A stretch of 44,476 nt of DNA, from sequence record NC_073068.1. One strand, 5' to 3'. Each line of letters begins with the position of its first letter. Position 1 is the stretch's first letter. The notes under the pieces were generated by a model. That model was given only the letters and a program-made list of their open reading frames with translations. It was not told the DNA's origin and did not search any database. A program made the translations under genes and the position numbers. Below are positions 629 through 44,476 of this stretch, piece after piece. This DNA comes from Escherichia phage vB_EcoD_Pubbukkers.

Positions 629-2013
629 TGCGTAACTATGCGGCAGAACACCGCGCACTGGAACGCGCGATCGCGAAGCGCAACCGACCACCGCGCCCGA
701 CACGCGTTGCGCAGGCGGTGCGGCTTTACCAGCCTGATTGCCTACCACACCAGGTCGAACTACTGCGGGACACGAAGACTAAAATCCTCGGCCTGTGTTC
801 CGGCTTCGGCGGCGGCAAGTCATGGGTCGCAGCCCGTAAGGTAATCCAGCTTTTAACCCTGAACCCGGGTCATGATGGCATCGTTACCGAACCGACTATT
901 CCACTCCTGGTTAAAATCATGTATCCGGAATTGGAAAAGGCTTTCGACGAGGCTGGCTTCCGGTGGAAGTTCAACAAGCAGGACAAGATCTATAGCGTTC
1001 TGGTGAAAGGCAAATGGACCCGCGTGATCTGTGAATCAATGGAGAACTATACCCGCCTGATCGGGGTCAACGCCGCGTGGATTGTTGCCGACGAGTTCGA
1101 CACCACGAAACAAGACGTCGCGCTGGCGGCATATCACAAATTGCTAGGTCGTCTGCGTGCGGGCTTCGTCCGCCAGTTCGTCATCGTATCCACGCCTGAA
1201 GGCTACCGGGCGATGTATCAAATTTTCGAGGTGGAGAAGGATAGCCAAAAGCGCCTGATCCGGGCGAAGACCACCGACAACCACCATTTACCGGCAGACT
1301 TTATCGACACGCTGCGCAGTCAGTACCCGGCTAACCTGATTGATGCGTACCTGAACGGCCTGTTTGTTAACCTTACGTCGGGCGCGGTGTACAAGATGTT
1401 CAACCGAGAGGAGAACGCCAGCACCGAAGAAGTGCAGCCGGACGACACGCTGATTATCGGTATGGACTTTAACGTCACTAAGATGGCGGCGGTTGTGTAC
1501 GTCAGACGGCAGCGAGTCACCGAGAACAAGGAGTTCCTCGACGAGATTCACGCGGTGGATGAATTTGTGGATCTGTTTGATACCCCGGCTATGATTGAGG
1601 CGATCGAGGAGCGCTACCCCGAACATTGTGCCGCCGGTCGTGTTGTCGTCTACCCGGATAGCAGCGGCAAATCCCGCAAAACGGTCAACGCGTCGTCGTC
1701 CGATATCGCGCAACTGGAAGATGCTGGCTTCGAGGTGGAGTACGACAGCGTTAACCCACCTGTGAAAGACCGATTGATCGCGATGAATACGATGATGTGC
1801 AACTCGAAGGGCGTGCGCCAGTATTTTGTCAACCTGGATAAATGCCCTACACTAGCGAAATGCCTGGAACAGCAGGTTTACGACCTGAAGAAAGGCGAGC
1901 CGGATAAAACTGCCGGTGTGGACCACATGAATGATGCCGCGGGCTACCCTATTGCGCACTTGTTCCCTGTGATTCGTCCGATCGCCGTTGTTCCTACTGT
2001 AGACTTCTACTAA
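628..2013 (+). CDS. terminase large subunit
   Basis: 461 aa; Walker A-like GLCSGFGGGKS and Walker B-like WIVADEFD; position directly before the portal gene. Confidence 0.88.
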   Translation: MRNYAAEHRALERAIAKRNRPPRPTRVAQAVRLYQPDCLPHQVELLRDTKTKILGLCSGFGGGKSWVAARKVIQLLTLNPGHDGIVTEPTIPLLVKIMYPELEKAFDEAGFRWKFNKQDKIYSVLVKGKWTRVICESMENYTRLIGVNAAWIVADEFDTTKQDVALAAYHKLLGRLRAGFVRQFVIVSTPEGYRAMYQIFEVEKDSQKRLIRAKTTDNHHLPADFIDTLRSQYPANLIDAYLNGLFVNLTSGAVYKMFNREENASTEEVQPDDTLIIGMDFNVTKMAAVVYVRRQRVTENKEFLDEIHAVDEFVDLFDTPAMIEAIEERYPEHCAAGRVVVYPDSSGKSRKTVNASSSDIAQLEDAGFEVEYDSVNPPVKDRLIAMNTMMCNSKGVRQYFVNLDKCPTLAKCLEQQVYDLKKGEPDKTAGVDHMNDAAGYPIAHLFPVIRPIAVVPTVDFY

Positions 2014-2024
2014 GGAAACCGACC

Positions 2025-3545
2025 ATGACCGTTAACGTTGACAACCAGCACCCGCTCTATGCGCGCATCGCGCCAGAGTGGAAAATGATCCGCGACTGCG
2101 TAGCGGGGGAGCGCGCCGTGAAGGCGTGCGGCCCCTTGTACCTGCCACACCCCGCAAGCGGCGACACCACCGACCCGAAATCACGGGCACGGTATAAGGC
2201 GTATAAGCAACGTGCTGTCTTCCTGAACGCCACCGCCCGCACACTTAACGCGCTGTTAGGTGTCGCCTTCGCCAAACCGGTGAGTATGGACCTTTCCGGG
2301 GCAATGGCTGACCTGATTGATGACGTTGACGGCAGCGGTATGCCGCTGGCGCAACTCCTGCGCGGTGCTATGTCTGAAGTTCTGCAGTCAGGCCGTGCCG
2401 GGTTTATGGTCGACTACGACCGCCAGGCGCATTTTGACGAACTGGGTAACGTAGTACCGCAGACCGCCGCTGAAATGGCGGCACACCGCCCGCTTATCCG
2501 CCTGTATACGGCTGAACAGATCATTAACTGGCGGCAGACCCACGGGGTCGACACGCTAATCGTGCTGAAGGAAACGGACGAAATCAGCACCGAAGACCCG
2601 GACGACTTCGCAAACCACGAAGTAACGATCTGGACCGAGCTTCGCATGATTGCGGGTAAGGCCCACGCCCGCCGCTGGTTTTACAACGCTGACACGTCCG
2701 AGGTGCAGATGGACTTGCCGCGAGGCTTCACCCGCACCGACCTTGTACCATTGGTGGATGCCTCCGGTAATGCGCTAACTCAACTGCCATTTTGCTGGTG
2801 TGGCGCGGTGGACAACAACGCGACACCGGACGCCGCACCGCTGGCGGATATTGCGTCCATCAACATTAAGCACTACAACGCCGAAGCGGACGTCGCCGAG
2901 ATTGCGCACATCGTGGGCCAACCTACACTCATTGCGACTGGTCTGACCCAATCATGGGCGGACAAGAACCTGAAAGGAGGCATCGCGCTCGGGGCAACTA
3001 AGGGCGTTATCCTGGGCCAGAACATGGACGCCAAACTGCTTCAGGCGGAGGAGCGCAACTTGTCTGTTGCACTGTGTGAGCGCCGCGAATTGCAAATGGC
3101 TAAACTGGGCGCGGCCCTGGTCGAGAAGGGGACCGCACCTAAGACGGCAACCGAGGCGGCCTATGATGCACAGACTGATAACAGTATCCTGTCACTGATT
3201 GCCGGTAACGTCGAGAAGGCTTTCAACCGTGCGCTGCAAATCGTCAAGCTGTTCACGGGCGACACCGCAGATCAACGCGTAACGCTGAATAAGTTCTACA
3301 CCGAAATCACGGTTGACGCACAGCTTATGACCGCAATGATGGCGGGTGTGCAGACCGGTACGGTCCGTCTGGCGGACTTTATCAAGTGGATGATGGCCCA
3401 GGGCGTTATTGATGACTCGCAAACCGTCGAGCAGGTGGAAGACGAACTGCGAAATCAGAATCCATTGCCTCAAATGTCCCCGGATGCGGTAGAATCGACC
3501 GAAGAAGCCCCGGACGAGGTAGCGGACAATGGCGAAGACAATTAA
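2025..3545 (+). CDS. portal protein
   Basis: 506-aa ORF immediately after TerL and before a MuF-like gene; size and synteny typical of portal; acidic C-terminal tail. Confidence 0.75.
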   Translation: MTVNVDNQHPLYARIAPEWKMIRDCVAGERAVKACGPLYLPHPASGDTTDPKSRARYKAYKQRAVFLNATARTLNALLGVAFAKPVSMDLSGAMADLIDDVDGSGMPLAQLLRGAMSEVLQSGRAGFMVDYDRQAHFDELGNVVPQTAAEMAAHRPLIRLYTAEQIINWRQTHGVDTLIVLKETDEISTEDPDDFANHEVTIWTELRMIAGKAHARRWFYNADTSEVQMDLPRGFTRTDLVPLVDASGNALTQLPFCWCGAVDNNATPDAAPLADIASINIKHYNAEADVAEIAHIVGQPTLIATGLTQSWADKNLKGGIALGATKGVILGQNMDAKLLQAEERNLSVALCERRELQMAKLGAALVEKGTAPKTATEAAYDAQTDNSILSLIAGNVEKAFNRALQIVKLFTGDTADQRVTLNKFYTEITVDAQLMTAMMAGVQTGTVRLADFIKWMMAQGVIDDSQTVEQVEDELRNQNPLPQMSPDAVESTEEAPDEVADNGEDN

Positions 3546-4632
3546 TCAATATATGGCGGATCGAATGATTCGCCGTCACATCTTCACCCAGCGCCTGAGT
3601 AATGACCAGGCGCGGAGGGTGTTGGCTATGTGGGAGAAGTTCCGGCCCACGTTACTGGGTAAGCTGACCGAGTTGCTTGATGGTAAAAAGTCCATGAGCA
3701 ACAAGGCGCTTACCACCCTGTTAACGCAACTCGACAAGACCATCAAAACGGAACTGCGCACCGAGTTTAAGGTGCTGGCTGAAAGCCTTCAGGAGTTCGC
3801 CGACACCGAGGCCGATTATCTAGCCGACACATTAACGGCAGCGATCCAGCCGGTGGTCGCCGTACCGGCGGTCGAGGTGGTTGGCGTAGTGACCGGCGCG
3901 CAGATCGCAGCAACGGCAATGACAAACCCGTTCCAGGGCAATACCATGATGCAATGGCCCGACTCACTTTCTGAGTGGACCAGGACGCAGATCGGTAATC
4001 AGGTGCGGGCGGGATTCATCCAGGGCAAGCCAACGATGGAAATTATCGCGGACGTGAGGCGCGCGCTAGGCGGTCGTAGTGCGCAAGCCATCTCAAGCGT
4101 TGTTAAGTCCGCAGTCAACCACTATGCGGCGACCGCCCGCGAACTAATGGTAAAAGCAAATGACGATATTCTCGAAGGTCGCCAATGGTTATCTACATTG
4201 GACACGCATACTTCTCCCATGTGCCAGCTACGCGATCGCCTGTTTTATCCGGTTGATGTTACTCCCGACACCAAAGGAAAGCGCGGCGGGAAAGTGGTGG
4301 CTGGGTCACAATATGGCGCTGGTCCGGGCAAGTTGCATTATTGCTGCCGCTCGACGGAGACGTGGAAAGTCAAAGGTATGGAAGATTGGCCCAGTGGTAA
4401 GCGTCCGGCACTGAAGGCTGACGCAGGCAGATTGCTGAGTGAGCAGGTCGACGCGCAGACTGATTTCTTCTCATGGGTGCAGCGCCAGCCGCGCCATATC
4501 CTGGAAGAATTATATGGAGTGCAACGCGCCGACCAGATTATGCGCGGCGTGAAAGTGCCGAAGATGTTCACCGATTCTGGCGAACTGATGACTGTTGCAC
4601 AGCTTAAAAACCGGGGGTTATGGCGTGATTAA
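3529..4632 (+). CDS. head morphogenesis protein (Mu gpF / SPP1 gp7-like)
   Basis: 367 aa; start overlaps portal end; contains LSTLDTHTSPMCQLRDRLFYP, matching the conserved D-x-x-T-S-x-x-C core of the MuF domain. Confidence 0.75.
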   Translation: MAKTINQYMADRMIRRHIFTQRLSNDQARRVLAMWEKFRPTLLGKLTELLDGKKSMSNKALTTLLTQLDKTIKTELRTEFKVLAESLQEFADTEADYLADTLTAAIQPVVAVPAVEVVGVVTGAQIAATAMTNPFQGNTMMQWPDSLSEWTRTQIGNQVRAGFIQGKPTMEIIADVRRALGGRSAQAISSVVKSAVNHYAATARELMVKANDDILEGRQWLSTLDTHTSPMCQLRDRLFYPVDVTPDTKGKRGGKVVAGSQYGAGPGKLHYCCRSTETWKVKGMEDWPSGKRPALKADAGRLLSEQVDAQTDFFSWVQRQPRHILEELYGVQRADQIMRGVKVPKMFTDSGELMTVAQLKNRGLWRD

Positions 4633-4954
4633 ATATGCAGCGATCGGGGTGGTTATCGGCCTGGCGGTTGGCTTCTGGCTGGGTGATTCCTACCGCGCTG
4701 GCGTTGTGGCGAGCGCGGCGCAAGAAGCGCAAGCGAAAGCCCGACGGCAGCAAACTAAGGTTGTCGAGGGGGCAGTGCAGGCAGAACAGGCCCGCGACGT
4801 AGAATACCGGACTATCACGAAAGAGGTTGTAAAATATGTTACGCGTCCTAACCGTCCTGATTGTAGTTTTGATGCTGAGCGCGTGCGGATCAAGCAACGT
4901 GCCGTTGATGCCGCTAACGGAGTCGGCACTGCGACCGCCGTGCAAGTTCGATAA
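4595..4954 (+). CDS. i-spanin (Rz-like), putative
   Basis: N-terminal TM helix (IKYAAIGVVIGLAVGFWLG) followed by charged coiled-coil-like region; contains an overlapping lipoprotein ORF in the +1 frame. GTG at 4625 is an alternative start. Confidence 0.5.
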   Translation: MHSLKTGGYGVIKYAAIGVVIGLAVGFWLGDSYRAGVVASAAQEAQAKARRQQTKVVEGAVQAEQARDVEYRTITKEVVKYVTRPNRPDCSFDAERVRIKQRAVDAANGVGTATAVQVR

Positions 4955-5066
4955 CCCGTCCGCGGACCCCGACGAAGATTTGATGATTGACGTGAAAAAT
5001 ATGGAATGCGGCGCGAAGCTAAGGGCGCAAGTGCTGGAGTTGCAGAAAATAATTCGGGGGCCGTGA
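4836..5066 (+). CDS. o-spanin (Rz1-like outer-membrane lipoprotein), putative
   Basis: 76 aa; lipoprotein signal with lipobox LSAC; Pro-rich mature part; starts inside the Rz-like ORF in another frame and runs past its stop (overlapped architecture); RBS AGAGG 9 nt upstream. Confidence 0.55.
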   Translation: MLRVLTVLIVVLMLSACGSSNVPLMPLTESALRPPCKFDNPSADPDEDLMIDVKNMECGAKLRAQVLELQKIIRGP

Positions 5067-5080
5067 TGGCCCCTTTTGTT
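5056..5080. terminator. rho-independent terminator between convergent genes
   Basis: GGGGCC-gtgat-GGCCCC stem followed by TTTTGTT; lies between the plus spanin ORF end (5066) and the minus gene end (5079). Confidence 0.6.
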
Positions 5081-5843
5081 AGCGTGGAATACCGCAGATT
5101 TCGTTTAACGTCTTCACATCCAGCGCCACCGCCGTGGACTTAGGCTTGTCCGGGTATGGAATGAACTGTTCCACTTCAGGCCACGCCTTGATCAGCTTCT
5201 TATCGGTATTGTGCATGTTCAGAACGCCGGTAACGGTTAGCTTGAACGCGTCATACTTAGCTCGCAACTCGCGTCGGGCCTTGTCGTTACGGTCCAGGCG
5301 CTTGCAGAAATCATGATCCGCCGGAAAATCAGCGCGGCAGCGTGGCTTATAGATCGGCAGCGCTTTCCCGTCCTCGTCCAATTCGCACACAGAAGCCAGC
5401 ATAACTTCTTCGTACCCAGGCACAATATCGCCGAGATCGGGAGATAGCATATTCATGTATTTATATTCCCAGTATCCGCGATGTATTCGGTATTGTCGTC
5501 CGTCACCGCTCAATGACAGTGTGCGCACATTTCCGCCTGCGTTGATTTCGAAAGTGGCGTCATAAACGCTGCCGATACCGTTCGGGCTGTCGGCGTCATA
5601 TCTATACGTCGCCTTGTTGGTGTATACGCAGACGCCGTACATCTGCGACGGGTCATCGCCGATTGCTTCAATGCGCTCACGTAGCTCGGCGAACGAATGA
5701 ATGCCTTCCGGCATACAGTCAAGCGTAATGGCGTACGCCAGATTTCGAGAGTCCATCATGATTGATTTGGCTTCGGTCGCGATTTCGTGGTCGCGCAGGA
5801 TGTTAGCCAGAATCTGGTTTTTAATGTCTTTCGTCAGTCTCAT
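5079..5843 (-). CDS. hypothetical protein (reverse-strand moron in head module)
   Basis: 255 aa starting MRLTKDIKNQ with RBS GAGGA; the ORF-track N-terminal extension (to 6224) is low-complexity antisense of the scaffold gene and is rejected. No recognisable motif. Confidence 0.6.
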   Translation of the reverse strand: MRLTKDIKNQILANILRDHEIATEAKSIMMDSRNLAYAITLDCMPEGIHSFAELRERIEAIGDDPSQMYGVCVYTNKATYRYDADSPNGIGSVYDATFEINAGGNVRTLSLSGDGRQYRIHRGYWEYKYMNMLSPDLGDIVPGYEEVMLASVCELDEDGKALPIYKPRCRADFPADHDFCKRLDRNDKARRELRAKYDAFKLTVTGVLNMHNTDKKLIKAWPEVEQFIPYPDKPKSTAVALDVKTLNEICGIPR

Positions 5844-5991: not shown

Positions 5992-6696
5992 ATGAAACTT
6001 ACTAAAGCAGAATATGACGCGTTGCCGGAAGGTATGAAGGCGCTTTTTGTTGCCGATGGCGACGGGTATAAATCAACTTTCATGACCGCAGAAGAAGTAC
6101 AGGCGGAAATCAAGGGTCTGAAAGAAAACAACGCGAAGCTGGTGAGCGAGAAGAAAGCAGAAGCCGAACGCCGCGCCGAAGCTGAGCGCCTTGCGAAAGA
6201 GAAAGAGGAAGCCGCCGCGCGCAAAAATGGCGACCTCGAAGCGATCGATAAGTCCTGGAAGGATAAGTTTGCGAAACACGAAGCAGATACATCGGGAAAA
6301 ATCGAAGCCTACCGCAAGCAGATCCACGACCTAACCATCGGCAGCGCTGCCAAAGACCTGGCATCGAAGCTATTCGGTAAGAATGCGGGCATCATGCAAC
6401 GCCACGTAATGGACCGCCTGACGCTGGAAGACGGCGAAGATGGCAGCTTGAAAGTGCGTGTCTTGCAGGATGGCAAACCGTCCGCGCTGACTATGGAAGA
6501 GCTTGAAAAAGAGTTCCGTAATAACGCAGATTTTGCATCCGTCCTGGCTGGCACGCCAGCCGGTGGCGCGCCTAGCAAACCGACGCAGGTTGTCGAAGAT
6601 GTGAAGTCGAAAATCACTATGGGCCACAGCTTCGGTATCACTGACCTTACGAAACAGGCAGGTGAAATCATCGCTAAGATGGGCGACGACGAGTAA
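5992..6696 (+). CDS. scaffolding protein (putative)
   Basis: 234 aa starting MKLTKAEYDALPEG with RBS AGGGGGA; long charged coiled-coil-like segment (AEAERRAEAERLAKEKEEAAARK); immediately upstream of the putative major capsid gene. Confidence 0.6.
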   Translation: MKLTKAEYDALPEGMKALFVADGDGYKSTFMTAEEVQAEIKGLKENNAKLVSEKKAEAERRAEAERLAKEKEEAAARKNGDLEAIDKSWKDKFAKHEADTSGKIEAYRKQIHDLTIGSAAKDLASKLFGKNAGIMQRHVMDRLTLEDGEDGSLKVRVLQDGKPSALTMEELEKEFRNNADFASVLAGTPAGGAPSKPTQVVEDVKSKITMGHSFGITDLTKQAGEIIAKMGDDE

Positions 6697-21707: not shown

Positions 21708-21926
21708 TTACTTGCAGGTTGTGCTTTTGAAATGGTCAACTGACACATACTGGAAGTTGAACGGGTATCCCGCCCTTAGCATTTTATGCCCGGAGAAGTC
21801 CGCAACACCATACACAGGGACCACATAATCCATGCCGCTATTCTGGTATGTGGCGTCGCAGACTTTAGCGGGCATGTCGGCGCAACCGGACAAAAGAACC
21901 GCACAAATCATAATTAAAGTTTTCAT
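21708..21926 (-). CDS. small lipoprotein, candidate superinfection-exclusion protein (Cor/Llp-like)
   Basis: 72 aa from ATG 21926 (MKTLIMICAVLLSGCADMP) with lipobox LLSGC and RBS AGGGGATGA; on the opposite strand between tail genes and the side fibre gene. Confidence 0.6.
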   Translation of the reverse strand: MKTLIMICAVLLSGCADMPAKVCDATYQNSGMDYVVPVYGVADFSGHKMLRAGYPFNFQYVSVDHFKSTTCK

Positions 21927-41730: not shown

Positions 41731-41955
41731 GTGCGACGATCCGTGATATGCTTCAGCACAACCGCTTTGAGATAGGCGGTCGGGTGTTTCGCAATTACTT
41801 CGTGGCGCGTGCATGGGCGCGCCATATTGGCAAACCGGAAGGGGCAATTCGATGCTATACGTCTTCGCGGTAGTATGTGGCGGTAGTCTGGTGGCCCTGG
41901 TGCTGTTGGCGTCGGCAAGTGGTCCATTTTCGATTAATTATGCAAGCGTGATATA

Positions 41956-41990
41956 GTCCCAGTGAGCTAAAACTTACTGGGACTTTTTTA
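41956..41990 (+). terminator. rho-independent terminator / RBS-occluding hairpin immediately upstream of the holin
   Basis: GTCCCAGTGAG-ctaaaa-CTTACTGGGAC stem followed by TTTTTT and then the holin ATG at 41990. Confidence 0.6.
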
Positions 41991-42280
41991 TGGATAAGCT
42001 AAACGAGTGGTTATTTGCCCTCGCATGTCTGGCAGGCGGCTTCGTAGGCGCACGCATTCACGGCGAGGCTACGAAAGGGCCGCTAAACTTCGTGTTATAT
42101 ATCGTAGTTGGCTTCCTGTGTGCCATCTTTGGTGCGCCAGCTATCGCCGAGTGGGCTGGCTTATCTGGCGAGCGCACTGTCGCCGGTTTGGGCTTCGTAA
42201 CTGCCATCTTCTGGATGCCAATAGCTGACCGGATCCGGGAGACAATTGCGTCGCTACACCTTCCGGGGGGCGCAAAATGA
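41990..42280 (+). CDS. holin (putative)
   Basis: 96 aa with three hydrophobic segments and a charged C-terminus; first gene of a three-gene cassette ending in a lysozyme. Confidence 0.6.
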   Translation: MDKLNEWLFALACLAGGFVGARIHGEATKGPLNFVLYIVVGFLCAIFGAPAIAEWAGLSGERTVAGLGFVTAIFWMPIADRIRETIASLHLPGGAK

Positions 42281-42522
42281 TTATCACCGTCCTGTTGTTT
42301 GTTATCATAGGGGCTTCGTCCCTGTTTAACGTGTATGCGCCGTCCGTTCAGGATGGCTTCTTCGGTCGGGTGTTATATCTGCTAACAGCAATGACCTGTA
42401 TTGTCGGGCTGTTGCAAACGGGAGACGTCTCTGATGCCACCTGGACCGCGTTAATCTGGCTGTTTGCATTGCGCACCCTGCGTAATGCTGTGTTGAATGG
42501 GGTAAAACATGCGATTCAGTGA
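42277..42522 (+). CDS. second holin-like membrane protein (holin or antiholin)
   Basis: 81 aa with two or three hydrophobic helices; start overlaps the previous stop; overlaps the endolysin start. Confidence 0.5.
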   Translation: MIITVLLFVIIGASSLFNVYAPSVQDGFFGRVLYLLTAMTCIVGLLQTGDVSDATWTALIWLFALRTLRNAVLNGVKHAIQ

Positions 42523-43000
42523 TAACGGTCTAAGATTTACGGCAGCATGGGAGGCTTTCAGCCCGGTGCCGTATTTCGCGACCAAGAAAGAGCAGGCCCG
42601 CGGCCTGTACACCTGGGGTTATGGGCACACTGGCACTAATCCGCCACGAAGCATTACCCGTGCGGAAGCGCTGGAACTGCTCAAGCGCGATGTGGCGTAT
42701 GCTGAGGACTGGGTGAACAAATACGCACATCCGAGCATTAACCAGGCGCAATTCGACGCGCTGGTGGATCTGGTAATCAACGCCGGTCCAGGTCCGATCG
42801 TCCCGGATGACGTCGCGACCGACTTTGATGATGCGGTGCGACTGGGCGACTGGGCGAAGGTGCGGGCTATACTGCCACAATTCCGCAAGCAAGGCGGTGT
42901 AGTGCTCAAGGGGCTTGTCCGTCGTGCAATCGGCAGGCAAGCGCTATTCGATGGTAAGCAGTGGGACGTTGCCGAGCGAATCGGTCGTAACGCTGCATAA
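42509..43000 (+). CDS. endolysin, phage lysozyme (GH24-like)
   Basis: 163 aa; N-terminal GLRFTAAWEAFSPVPY...GLYTWGYGHT matches the catalytic-Glu region and the Y-T-I-G-x-G-H core of T4-type lysozymes. Confidence 0.72.
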   Translation: MRFSDNGLRFTAAWEAFSPVPYFATKKEQARGLYTWGYGHTGTNPPRSITRAEALELLKRDVAYAEDWVNKYAHPSINQAQFDALVDLVINAGPGPIVPDDVATDFDDAVRLGDWAKVRAILPQFRKQGGVVLKGLVRRAIGRQALFDGKQWDVAERIGRNAA

Positions 43001-43201
43001 TACGAGGTGACACGATATGTTAAAAAGTATTCTTGATCATAATGCGGACGCGCTCGCCGCGCTGGCTAAAACCGAAGACCCTGGCGCACGCGCTATCATC
43101 GCGGACACTATCAGCCATGCAGGCGTCTTTGACGCGAAGCTGCCTAGCCCGCCGCCACAGGAAGAATCTGGCCCAGTGACGTAAACAATCAAGCCCGGTT
43201 A

Positions 43202-43227
43202 ATTCCGGGCTTTTTTATTTATTGCCC
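43202..43227 (+). terminator. rho-independent terminator
   Basis: AGCCCGG-ttaatt-CCGGGCT stem followed by TTTTTTATTT after the lysis cassette. Confidence 0.7.
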
Positions 43228-43279: not shown

Positions 43280-44422
43280 ATGCACCCGCAAACTAAAATC
43301 ACCGACGAGCAATTGATCGCAGAATTGCAATCCGGCACTACCGCGAAAGAGATTGCGAAGAAGTACGGCCTTTCCCTACGAAATGTCTACATGCGCAAAG
43401 CCCGCCTGTCGAAGAAAGGTATTGGTCATGGTAACGATGCCGTAATCCGTAAGCGCGTTGCCGATGGCTTTGGCGTTAAGCGCGTATCCGCCCTGGTGCG
43501 CGGCAATGGTGAAGAGGTCATGTCGTGGGTTATCACTGAGCAGGACAAGGAGCGCCAGCTTGAAGCAATGCGCGCAGTGCTGGACGGCATGAACAGCGAA
43601 ATCACACCGGCAGCACCAGTTAGCGCCCCGCCAGTCCCGATCCAGGCGCTGGACTTGCTCAACCTGTACACCGTGTCTGACTTCCACCTGGGCATGTTGG
43701 CCTGGGGCGAGGAGACTGGCGAAGACTGGGATATGGCGATCGCCGAAGACCTGTTCTACCGCTGGTTTGTCGAAGCCTTCGCACGCGCCCCGGACGCAGG
43801 CACTGCCGTAATTAATATCCTCGGTGATATGGCCCACTTTGATAGCCTCGATGCTGTCACTCCGGCAAGTGGTCACATACTGGACGCCGACACCCGCTAC
43901 CAGAAACTGGTCCGATACATGATTCGCATGGTGCGCAACGTCGTCGAACTGGCGCTGCAAAAACACCACAAAGTCAAACTGCTAATCGTCCAGGGAAATC
44001 ATGACGAGTCGGGTATGATTTGGCTGGCTGAGATGTTCAATACTCTGTACGAGAACGAGCCGCGCGTCGATGTGGATACGTCCCCGGACGTCTACAAAAT
44101 GGTGCAGCACGGCAAGACCACGCTATTTTTCCACCACGGGCATAAAGCGCGCTTTGACGCTATCGAAACCGTCATGATTTCTAAATTCAGACAGGCTTTC
44201 GGGGCCAGTGAGTACAGCTACGCGCATGTCGGTCACTTGCACCACCAGAAGATTGTTGAATCCCGCAACATGATTGTTGAACAGCACCGGACCCTCGCAG
44301 CGAAAGACGCATATGCCAGCCGTGGTGGTTGGATGTCCGGTCGCAGTGCCAACGTAATCACCTATAGCGCCAACTACGGCGAAGTGGCGCGCTTAACCAT
44401 TAGCCCGGAAATGTTGAAGTAA
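43280..44422 (+). CDS. calcineurin-like metallophosphoesterase (SbcD/Mre11-like) with N-terminal HTH
   Basis: 380 aa; N-terminal HTH-like TAKEIAKKYGLSLRNVYMRK; phosphoesterase motifs DFHLG, GDMAHFD, GNHDE and HHGH; extended -10 TGgTATATT at 43246-43254 upstream. Confidence 0.65.
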   Translation: MHPQTKITDEQLIAELQSGTTAKEIAKKYGLSLRNVYMRKARLSKKGIGHGNDAVIRKRVADGFGVKRVSALVRGNGEEVMSWVITEQDKERQLEAMRAVLDGMNSEITPAAPVSAPPVPIQALDLLNLYTVSDFHLGMLAWGEETGEDWDMAIAEDLFYRWFVEAFARAPDAGTAVINILGDMAHFDSLDAVTPASGHILDADTRYQKLVRYMIRMVRNVVELALQKHHKVKLLIVQGNHDESGMIWLAEMFNTLYENEPRVDVDTSPDVYKMVQHGKTTLFFHHGHKARFDAIETVMISKFRQAFGASEYSYAHVGHLHHQKIVESRNMIVEQHRTLAAKDAYASRGGWMSGRSANVITYSANYGEVARLTISPEMLK

Positions 44423-44476
44423 CGGCGACCCGTAAGCCTCCCAGCCTGCCGATTTGGTGGGCTTTTTTGTGCCTGT

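Follow-up and report, generated by a model that had tools for sequence, protein, structure and literature searches.

Two overlapping plus-strand genes at 4625..4954 and 4836..5066 in the genome of Escherichia phage vB_EcoD_Pubbukkers very probably encode the two subunits of the spanin, which is the third and final factor in the lysis of Gram-negative hosts; from the sequence evidence, we put the probability of this assignment at about 0.93. The window analyzed (44,476 nucleotides, NC_073068.1) is the whole genome of a Dhillonvirus, an HK578/EK99P-1-like E. coli siphophage. An initial annotation had proposed an overlapped two-component spanin pair at this locus, and the proposal was supported by PHROG matches, the annotations of relatives, a published spanin census, and homologues in the lysis cassettes of Klebsiella phages. 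The census (Kongari et al. 2018, BMC Bioinformatics 19:326, PMC6139136) lists the same pair in HK578, EK99P-1, EP23, JL1, and SSL-2009a and assigns it to the 'Jersey' family of overlapped two-component spanins. The exact pair and its position in the head block have thus already been catalogued; the finding is correct, and it was already known. The evidence comes from the gene structure and its signals, from the fact that both frames are conserved, from the family matches, and from the genomic context.

The i-spanin gene

The first gene (4625..4954, +) encodes a 109-residue protein that matched phrog_2536 'Rz-like spanin' (E = 1.6e-36). Its hydrophobic N-terminal segment, IKYAAIGVVIGLAVGFWLG, reached a maximum Kyte-Doolittle 17-residue mean of 2.1, and a transmembrane anchor was predicted from hydropathy at residues ~2-20. 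A single-sequence AF2 model, which had low confidence (pLDDT 56.7) and was used for helix content only, contained helices at residues 3-72 and 84-97. Hydropathy and this low-confidence model are consistent with the general plan of an i-spanin under the criteria of Summer et al. 2007 and Kongari et al. 2018, i.e., a small type II protein with a single N-terminal transmembrane domain (TMD) and a largely helical periplasmic domain. The single conserved cysteine, Cys80, sits in the motif EVVKYVTRPNRPDCSFD.

The window also contains a longer ORF (4595..4954, +), which the initial annotation had taken as the membrane-anchored gene. The ORF and its hydrophobic N-terminus were indeed present, but its start had to be revised: translation most likely begins at GTG 4625, giving 109 residues, and not at TTG 4595. 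The TTG is replaced by TCG in phage BMA1, whereas all 8 genomes compared have GTG 4625, which is the start used in curated lists and has a Shine-Dalgarno-like GGGGG (4613..4617, +; read from the sequence) 7 nt upstream. The supplement of Kongari et al. 2018 gives the same Shine-Dalgarno string, 'accGGGGGttatggc', for HK578_005, and the 109-residue form is used both in that study (PMC6139136) and in GenBank (Bas84_0005, 330 nt). The start of the i-spanin gene overlaps the stop of the MuF-like gene upstream (GTGATTAA, 4625..4632), which suggests that the translation of the two genes is coupled.

Coiled-coil character is typical of many i-spanins, and the first ORF had been described as a coiled-coil protein. 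The protein was helical in the low-confidence AF2 model, in line with this description. On the other hand, the coiled-coil table of Kongari et al. 2018 (PMC6139136) gives zero segments for most Dhillonviruses (zero in HK578, EK99P-1, and EP23, and one in SSL-2009a), which leaves a coiled coil doubtful.

The o-spanin gene

The second gene (4836..5066, +) lies in the +1 frame relative to the i-spanin ORF, with which it shares 119 nt, and continues for 112 nt beyond the i-spanin stop codon. The two genes are thus adjacent and arranged as expected for a two-component spanin, in the overlapped architecture (the others being embedded and separated) with the o-spanin shifted to the +1 frame. Its 76-residue product matched phrog_5672 (1.1e-26) and phrog_1267 (5.3e-12), both named 'Rz-like spanin'. 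The N-terminus, MLRVLTVLIVVLMLSAC, carries the lipobox LSAC with Cys17 and has Gly at +2, and thus lacks the Asp at +2 that serves as the inner-membrane retention signal. The mature protein would comprise 60 residues, of which 7 are Pro (11.7%), and carries Cys36 and Cys58. An AAGAGG sequence is located at 4821..4826, 9 nt before the ATG. The initial description of this gene, a 76-residue, Pro-rich lipoprotein ORF in the +1 frame with the lipobox LSAC that extends past the i-spanin stop, agreed with these data throughout.

When all start codons of the 44.5-kb window, in each of the six frames, were screened with a lipoprotein-signal pattern, just two ORFs carried it, namely the o-spanin ORF and that of a Cor-family exclusion lipoprotein; shuffled versions of the genome (50 shuffles) contained 0.1 such ORFs on average.

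Genomic context and relatives

The spanin pair is the 3' neighbor, in the same orientation, of a head-morphogenesis gene (3529..4632, +) that lies directly upstream and whose product matched phrog_241 'head morphogenesis' (E = 6.9e-116). Since a Pfam scan of this product gave no match at E <= 0.1, the name 'MuF-like' rests on PHROG and GenBank naming. Downstream, a G+C-rich hairpin with a T-run (5056..5074) was matched by the terminator scan on both strands (fold -15.2 kcal/mol, z = -2.25). The o-spanin stop codon falls in the loop of this hairpin, which faces a convergent gene (5079..5843, -). The hairpin is likely to act as a bidirectional intrinsic terminator closing a terS-terL-portal-MuF-spanin unit. 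The placement of the pair between the MuF-like gene and a terminator, as noted initially, was borne out, and so was the stretch of ~6 kb that separates it, around the genome, from the holin/holin/endolysin cassette (41990..43000). This distance is counted across the window ends, which are contiguous in phage bob (800/800 nt aligned, 95.4% identity); the gene order there is holin, holin, endolysin, hypothetical, phosphoesterase, terS, terL, portal, MuF, and spanins. A position in the lysis cassette beside the holin and endolysin, which is usual for spanin genes but does not define them, was not observed here, and gene neighborhood, the customary pointer to a lysis role, therefore gives no support within this genome.

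The pair of HK578 and EK99P-1 has the same 109-residue i-spanin, starting with MIKYAAIG and preceded by the GGGGG Shine-Dalgarno, a 76-residue o-spanin, and a 119-nt overlap; the EK99P-1 coordinates are 4623-4953 and 4834-5065, compared with 4625-4954 and 4836-5066 in the window (PMC6139136). These pairs form part of the short subfamily 'EP23 to SO-1' of the 'Jersey' spanins (HK578_005/006, EK99P-1_0005/0006, EP23, JL1, and SSL-2009a; PMC6139136). Pairs of this subfamily occupy the same slot, directly after the head-morphogenesis gene, and differ from the present one only allelically. Both subunits were assigned to the 'Jersey' family (phrog_2536 with phrog_5672/phrog_1267), and the supplement sequences of HK578 and EK99P-1 were near-identical to them.

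Homologous i- and o-spanins are present in Jerseyvirus (Salmonella phage Jersey gp09/gp10) and in the Kagunavirus-like E. coli phage Bas71 (Bas71_0008/0009). They share with the present pair the motifs VVKYVxxPxRxxCxF and PPCK...DEDL..DV.N.EC, the +1 overlap, and the slot between the head-morphogenesis and scaffold genes; the holins of Jerseyvirus SeF1 also belong to the same PHROGs as those found here (phrog_2359 and phrog_2508). However, the Jersey and Bas71 spanins are longer (128 and 87 residues), overlap by 155 nt, and have poly-Q stretches in the i-spanin, and MuF is set apart from the spanins by one or two additional small genes, among them a Hoc-like decoration gene. The position of the pair in the head module is a conserved, documented arrangement of Dhillonvirus, Jerseyvirus, and Bas71, and is not peculiar to this genome.

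The i-spanin motif and its Cys are kept in Jersey, Bas71, and two Klebsiella phages. The homologous pairs of these four diverse phages all show the +1 overlapped geometry, with the i-spanin Cys and both periplasmic o-spanin Cys conserved. In alignments of 5 diverse members, i-Cys80, o-Cys36, and o-Cys58 were invariant, as were all three Cys of the o-spanin. In Klebsiella phage ST13-OXA48phi12.5, the homologous pair comes immediately after Q, holin, and lysozyme, and in Klebsiella phage VLCpiS13d, it comes after the endolysin and holin; both are canonical lysis-cassette positions.

These data bear on another explanation of the head-module position, namely that the lipoprotein acts in superinfection exclusion or receptor masking, like T5 Llp or Cor, and that the transmembrane protein has nothing to do with it and is simply a small membrane protein co-expressed with the head genes. 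A small exclusion-type phage lipoprotein is encoded in the same genome, as this explanation would have it. Nevertheless, we regard it as very improbable: the Cor-family lipoprotein is the product of a separate gene (21708..21926, -; phrog_1119 at 2.2e-27), 4836..5066 matched spanin PHROGs only, across genera, the lipoprotein ORF invariably accompanies that of the transmembrane protein, in the +1 frame, and the Klebsiella phage homologues directly follow holin and lysozyme genes.

Conservation of both reading frames

Both spanin frames are intact in 8 Dhillonviruses (this genome and 7 others), and both are under purifying selection: third codon positions accounted for 29 of the 46 substitutions in the part covered by the i-spanin frame only, and for 17/24 in the part covered by the o-spanin frame only. 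The i-spanin showed 85-99% amino acid identity to other Dhillonvirus i-spanins, the closest being that of Teewinot (99%). In the lineage of Gluttony and Envy, the i-spanin has 102 residues and a different C-terminal tail. A tblastn search with the i-spanin matched 658 phage records, among them Jersey, SETP3, and EK99P-1.

Annotation of the two genes varies among the relatives. They are named 'i-spanin' (330 nt) and 'Rz-like spanin' in Bas84, and the counterpart of 4836..5066 is a 'putative o-spanin' in Opt212; these GenBank spanin names, like those of PHROG, are computational annotations. Many GenBank records of Dhillonviruses, including the closest relative Teewinot, name the genes 'hypothetical'. 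The records of Teewinot (gp6), Gluttony, Envy (gp40), and BMA1 annotate just a 159-nt ORF that begins with the internal Met25, corresponding to a 52-residue o-spanin without a signal peptide.

The four latter records, together with the phrog_5672 profile, which spans only residues 32-76 of the o-spanin, could be taken to mean that the overlap arose by chance and that only one frame is a real gene, the 76-residue frame being either spurious or real only as its C-terminal 52-residue version. This is scarcely credible, given that the 76-residue frame with its lipobox was intact in 8/8 Dhillonviruses, is preceded by the AAGAGG Shine-Dalgarno, was aligned by phrog_1267 over residues 3-74, and has full-length homologues in Jersey, Bas71, and the two Klebsiella phages with an invariant lipobox Cys. 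Furthermore, since the window holds two ORFs with the lipoprotein-signal pattern against 0.1 in shuffled sequence, and since both frames are kept and the 3'-only part shows the third-position bias, the lipobox ORF is more than a chance occurrence.

The separate lysis cassette

The lysis cassette is preceded by a terminator-like hairpin (41955..41984) and begins with a holin gene (41990..42280, +; phrog_2359 holin, 5.1e-31). It continues with the gene of a second holin-family membrane protein (42277..42522, +; phrog_2508 holin, 4.1e-27), termed 'holin-like class I' in phage bob, and with an endolysin gene of the lysozyme family (42509..43000, +; Pfam PF00959 Phage_lysozyme, 5.7e-20; phrog_7, 2e-36). 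Another terminator-like hairpin (43191..43212) closes the cassette; the hairpins at 5056..5074, 41955..41984, and 43191..43212 bound the transcription units. A 55-residue ORF directly after the endolysin gene (43017..43184) was considered as a spanin candidate and rejected, as it has neither a TMD nor a lipobox and belongs to phrog_11068, a family of unknown function.

This ORF is conserved and phages without spanins exist (Kongari et al. 2018, PMC6139136), but there is little reason to believe that the pair at 4625..5066 is a decaying or redundant remnant and that a disruptin-like peptide or an unrecognized gene beside the endolysin breaks the outer membrane, as the product of 43017..43184 has no visible amphipathic-cationic, TMD, or lipobox features and both spanin frames are conserved under purifying selection across hundreds of genomes. 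With the pair read as functional spanin genes, the lysis gene set of the phage is two holins, an endolysin, and a spanin.

Comparison with other spanins

The pair consists of the same component types as Rz/Rz1 of phage lambda, i.e., a type II inner-membrane protein plus a lipoprotein of the outer membrane whose gene uses the +1 frame of the same DNA. Periplasmic Cys are also present in Rz/Rz1, and the role would likewise be disruption of the outer membrane by membrane fusion. In contrast, lambda Rz1 is fully embedded, whereas the present genes overlap and are located apart from the holin and endolysin genes. Unlike lambda Rz1, the mature o-spanins of the 'Jersey' family are predicted to be partly helical (Kongari et al. 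2018, PMC6139136). For the i-spanin, Pfam gave only sub-threshold matches to two DUF families, with no Rz/Rz1 match at E <= 0.1, and NCBIfam gave none; for the o-spanin, there was no Pfam match at E <= 0.1 and only a sub-threshold signal-peptide match in NCBIfam. Membership in the sequence families of lambda Rz (Pfam Phage_lysis) and Rz1 was rejected because neither database gave a match above threshold. The pair is 'Rz/Rz1-like' in architecture and inferred function only.

The spanin genes of phage T4, pseT.3/pseT.2, are likewise unlinked to the holin and endolysin genes (Fig. 8 legend of Kongari et al. 2018, PMC6139136), but they are separated, not overlapped, and belong to a different sequence family. 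A unimolecular spanin of the T1 gp11 type was also considered and rejected: the 76-residue lipoprotein lacks a C-terminal hydrophobic segment and ends in a charged C-terminus, …KLRAQVLELQKIIRGP.

Proposed function and implications

Here, we propose a model for the pair by analogy with lambda Rz/Rz1, for which the studies of Berry et al. in 2012 and Rajaure et al. in 2015 reportedly provide the basis. The i-spanin would be a type II inner-membrane protein with an N-terminal anchor and a periplasmic helical domain. The o-spanin would be a small lipoprotein cut at LSA|C, and it is predicted to be routed to the outer membrane because its +2 residue is Gly and not Asp. The C-terminal regions of the two subunits would bind each other, forming complexes that span the periplasm through the peptidoglycan mesh, and homodimers are probably stabilized by intermolecular disulfides at i-Cys80, o-Cys36, and o-Cys58. 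The spanin genes presumably form the 3' end of the late terS-terL-portal-MuF transcription unit, and the proteins would build up harmlessly during late expression, restrained by the intact peptidoglycan. Triggering of the holin and the ensuing loss of peptidoglycan to the endolysin would let the complexes collapse, whereupon the inner and outer membranes would fuse and the progeny would be released. Because the intact peptidoglycan would restrain the spanins and the holin would set the timing of lysis, the distance of the pair from the holin-endolysin cassette should be without functional effect.

Our literature searches turned up neither an experiment testing spanins of Dhillonvirus or of the Jersey family nor a discussion of the head-module location of spanin genes as such. 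The conserved slot of the pair at the 3' end of the packaging/head operon in Dhillonvirus, Jerseyvirus, and Bas71 might be functional, tying spanin dosage or timing to head assembly, or might be all that is left of an ancestral lysis cassette at this site; we consider this idea speculative and rather unlikely. The suggestion of a remnant comes from VLCpiS13d, in which the endolysin, holin, and spanin genes all lie within ~2 kb downstream of the head-morphogenesis gene, i.e., in this slot. If it were true, the E. coli and Salmonella phages would have moved or replaced their holin and endolysin genes at a later stage.

The value of the assignment lies mainly in annotation: it completes the lysis gene set of the phage, and the head-module location is normal for the lineage. 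As a practical correction, 4625..5066 should be regarded as lysis genes whenever Dhillonviruses are engineered or developed for phage therapy.

Structure of the spanin gene pair

At 4595-5066, the initial annotation had described two overlapping ORFs, the second a lipoprotein ORF in the +1 frame running past the stop of the first. This architecture was confirmed: the i-spanin ORF (predicted inner-membrane subunit; longest reading 4595..4954 on the + strand) and the o-spanin ORF (predicted lipoprotein subunit; 4836..5066 on the + strand, 76 aa, frame +1 relative to the former) overlap by 119 nt, and the latter runs 112 nt past the i-spanin stop. The i-spanin has a hydrophobic N-terminus (IKYAAIGVVIGLAVGFWLG; Kyte-Doolittle 17-residue mean of 2.1), beyond which it is charged, Ala/Gln-rich and contains one Cys. 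The N-terminus of the o-spanin, MLRVLTVLIVVLMLSAC followed by GSS, includes the lipobox LSAC with Gly as the +2 residue and is a lipoprotein signal of textbook type. The mature o-spanin of 60 aa contains seven Pro and two more Cys, in agreement with the Pro-rich lipoprotein originally proposed.

The start of the first ORF at 4595 was not retained. The i-spanin is most likely translated from GTG 4625 (4625..4954, 109 aa) rather than TTG 4595, because the GTG is invariant in 8/8 Dhillonvirus genomes compared, is preceded by GGGGG at 4613..4617 and overlaps the stop of the head-morphogenesis gene (GTGATTAA), whereas TTG 4595 reads TCG in phage BMA1. In addition, the 109-aa form is used in GenBank (e.g. 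Bas84_0005 'i-spanin', 330 nt) and in the curated list of Kongari et al. 2018 (PMC6139136).

The pair exceeds chance expectation on three counts. When the lipoprotein-signal pattern was run on every possible start in six frames of the whole window, two ORFs were found against a mean of 0.1 in 50 shuffles. Both spanin frames are intact across eight Dhillonvirus genomes, and among the genomes compared, third codon positions took 29 of 46 substitutions where only the i-spanin is encoded and 17 of 24 where only the o-spanin is; where both frames code, diversity was lower and neither frame showed a third-position bias. The window's only other lipobox ORF (21708..21926 on the - strand, 72 aa, MKTLIMICAVLLSGC…) matched phrog_1119 (Cor superinfection-exclusion, E = 2.2e-27); it sits on the strand opposite to the tail-tip/fibre genes, a short way downstream of them.

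Relationship to known spanins

The i-spanin matched phrog_2536 (1.6e-36) and the o-spanin matched phrog_5672 (1.1e-26) and phrog_1267 (5.3e-12), each 'Rz-like spanin'; Pfam and NCBIfam profiles gave no family match above threshold for either protein. Thus, the term Rz/Rz1-like suits the architecture and presumed mechanism, but not a sequence relationship to lambda Rz/Rz1. The coiled coil attributed to the i-spanin is weakly supported: coiled-coil segments in the table of Kongari et al. (PMC6139136) are mostly zero (0 for HK578, EK99P-1, and EP23; 1 for SSL-2009a), and a low-confidence AF2 single-sequence model (pLDDT 56.7) only suggests helices at 3-72 and 84-97 with the linker RPNRPDCSF between them.

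Neither the gene pair nor its arrangement is new. The pairs of HK578, EK99P-1, EP23, JL1, SSL-2009a, and SO-1 have been assigned to the 'Jersey' family of overlapped two-component spanins, as its shorter subfamily (Kongari et al. 2018, PMC6139136). According to the supplementary tables of that study, HK578 and EK99P-1 have a 109-aa i-spanin from MIKYAAIG, a 76-aa o-spanin, a 119-nt overlap and a Shine-Dalgarno string identical to that of the window i-spanin, and the EK99P-1 pair, at 4623-4953 / 4834-5065, occupies essentially the window coordinates. Several GenBank records already name these genes i-spanin, o-spanin or Rz-like spanin. In Dhillonvirus vB_EcoS_P78 (2025 description), the Rz-like spanin (gene 40) is displaced from the holins (genes 31 and 32) and endolysin (33), as in the window. 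A literature search found no experimental test of Jersey-family or Dhillonvirus spanins.

Position relative to the lysis cassette

As first noted, the pair lies between the MuF-like gene and a terminator: the head-morphogenesis gene upstream (3529..4632, + strand) matched phrog_241 (E = 6.9e-116), and the downstream boundary is a G+C-rich hairpin plus T-run at 5056..5074 (-15.2 kcal/mol, z = -2.25), probably a bidirectional terminator. Convergent to the spanins is a reverse gene (5079..5843, - strand, 254 aa; phrog_1965, function unknown), whose product the BF9 and Pandora71 records name 'Nmad5 domain-containing protein'. The stretch from 5079 to the scaffold gene (~5995..6696) is variable, as Teewinot lacks window 5104..5738 and BMA1 carries a further ~360 bp, including an additional reverse gene, between spanins and scaffold gene; this slot looks like a moron insertion hotspot.

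The holin and endolysin genes do lie apart, at 41990..43000: a holin (41990..42280, phrog_2359), a second holin-family gene (42277..42522, phrog_2508), and a lysozyme-type endolysin (42509..43000, PF00959, 5.7e-20). Directly 3' of the endolysin, still within the lysis unit bounded by terminators, is a conserved 55-aa ORF (43017..43184, + strand; phrog_11068, E = 8e-39, unknown function) that has neither a TMD nor a lipobox. Three strong terminator-like hairpins with T-runs, two flanking the lysis cassette (41955..41984 and 43191..43212) and one at 44443..44463, separate this cassette, an exonuclease/phosphoesterase gene (43280..44422, 380 aa, phrog_704), and the terS-to-spanin block.

The window's two ends are contiguous in phage bob (800/800 nt aligned, 95.4% identity); therefore, the window represents a complete genome, with the opening placed upstream of terS. 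Across the junction, the genes run in the order holin, holin, endolysin, small ORF, phosphoesterase/exonuclease, terS, terL, portal, MuF, and spanins, and the proposed distance of ~6 kb around the genome is accordingly correct. Window 4560..5100 is 88-99% identical to seven aligned Dhillonvirus genomes. For 4300..5300, matches were found in 156 phage records, of which 149 showed 90-95% identity. These relatives are HK578-like E. coli siphophages, with Teewinot the closest. Over the spanin region, 'Acinetobacter phage NJ01' (OQ221563.1, 44,487 bp) shares 93% identity with E. coli Dhillonviruses, so its host label looks doubtful. PQ843332.1 (88,607 bp, ~2x genome length) matches at three places, which suggests a concatemeric assembly.

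Homologous pairs in other phages

An i-spanin homologue occurs in 658 phage records. The homologous pairs keep the +1 overlap, the i-spanin motif VVKYVxxPxRxxCxF and the o-spanin motif PPCK…DEDL..DV.N.EC, and three cysteines are invariant in the o-spanin homologues. The pairs of Salmonella phage Jersey (gp09/gp10) and the Kagunavirus-like phage Bas71 occupy the same slot between head-morphogenesis and scaffold genes, so the location in the head module is ancient and has been conserved throughout a large phage group.

Guilt-by-association, absent within the Dhillonvirus genome, is supplied by two Klebsiella phages with classical lysis cassettes: Q antiterminator, holin, lysozyme, then i-spanin in ST13-OXA48phi12.5, and endolysin, holin, spanin in VLCpiS13d. 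In both, an unannotated o-spanin ORF homologous to that of the window overlaps the i-spanin homologue in the +1 frame (locus L010 3077..3319, lipobox LCSC, and locus L011 3092..3337, lipobox ISGC, respectively). Together with the PHROG matches and the Kongari list, these cassettes uphold the reading as an overlapped two-component spanin away from the holin-endolysin cassette. ST13-OXA48phi12.5 also has a separate 'Rz1 lytic protein' annotated ~700 bp further downstream.

Proposed mechanism

Our model follows the lambda Rz/Rz1 paradigm, reportedly that of Berry et al. 2012 and Rajaure et al. 2015. The i-spanin would insert into the inner membrane so that its C-terminal domain faces the periplasm, and the o-spanin would receive its lipid at Cys17 and be delivered to the outer membrane. 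Their C-terminal regions would then bind, with disulfide-stabilised complexes threading the peptidoglycan; upon holin triggering and wall degradation by the endolysin, the complexes would be freed and the two membranes fused. Spanins are inert before wall removal and the holin sets the timing; therefore, late expression is all they need. This is apparently provided by the position at the 3' end of a putative terS-to-MuF transcription unit, and the i-spanin start on the MuF stop may confer translational coupling. In T4, too, the spanin genes (pseT.3/pseT.2) are not linked to those for holin and endolysin, a precedent stated explicitly by Kongari et al. 2018 (PMC6139136).

Consequences for annotation

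In many Dhillonvirus records, including that of the closest relative Teewinot, the spanin genes are 'hypothetical' or the o-spanin is a 52-aa protein without a signal peptide. This 159-nt call starts from the internal Met25 and lacks the lipobox as well; it was found in Teewinot gp6 (locus L007 1784..1942), in Gluttony and in Envy gp40 (L008 and L009, both 1784..1942), and in BMA1 (L002 2109..2267). The phrog_5672 profile (47 positions) spans only o-spanin residues 32-76, which probably reflects these truncated calls. The remaining value of the finding is annotation hygiene.
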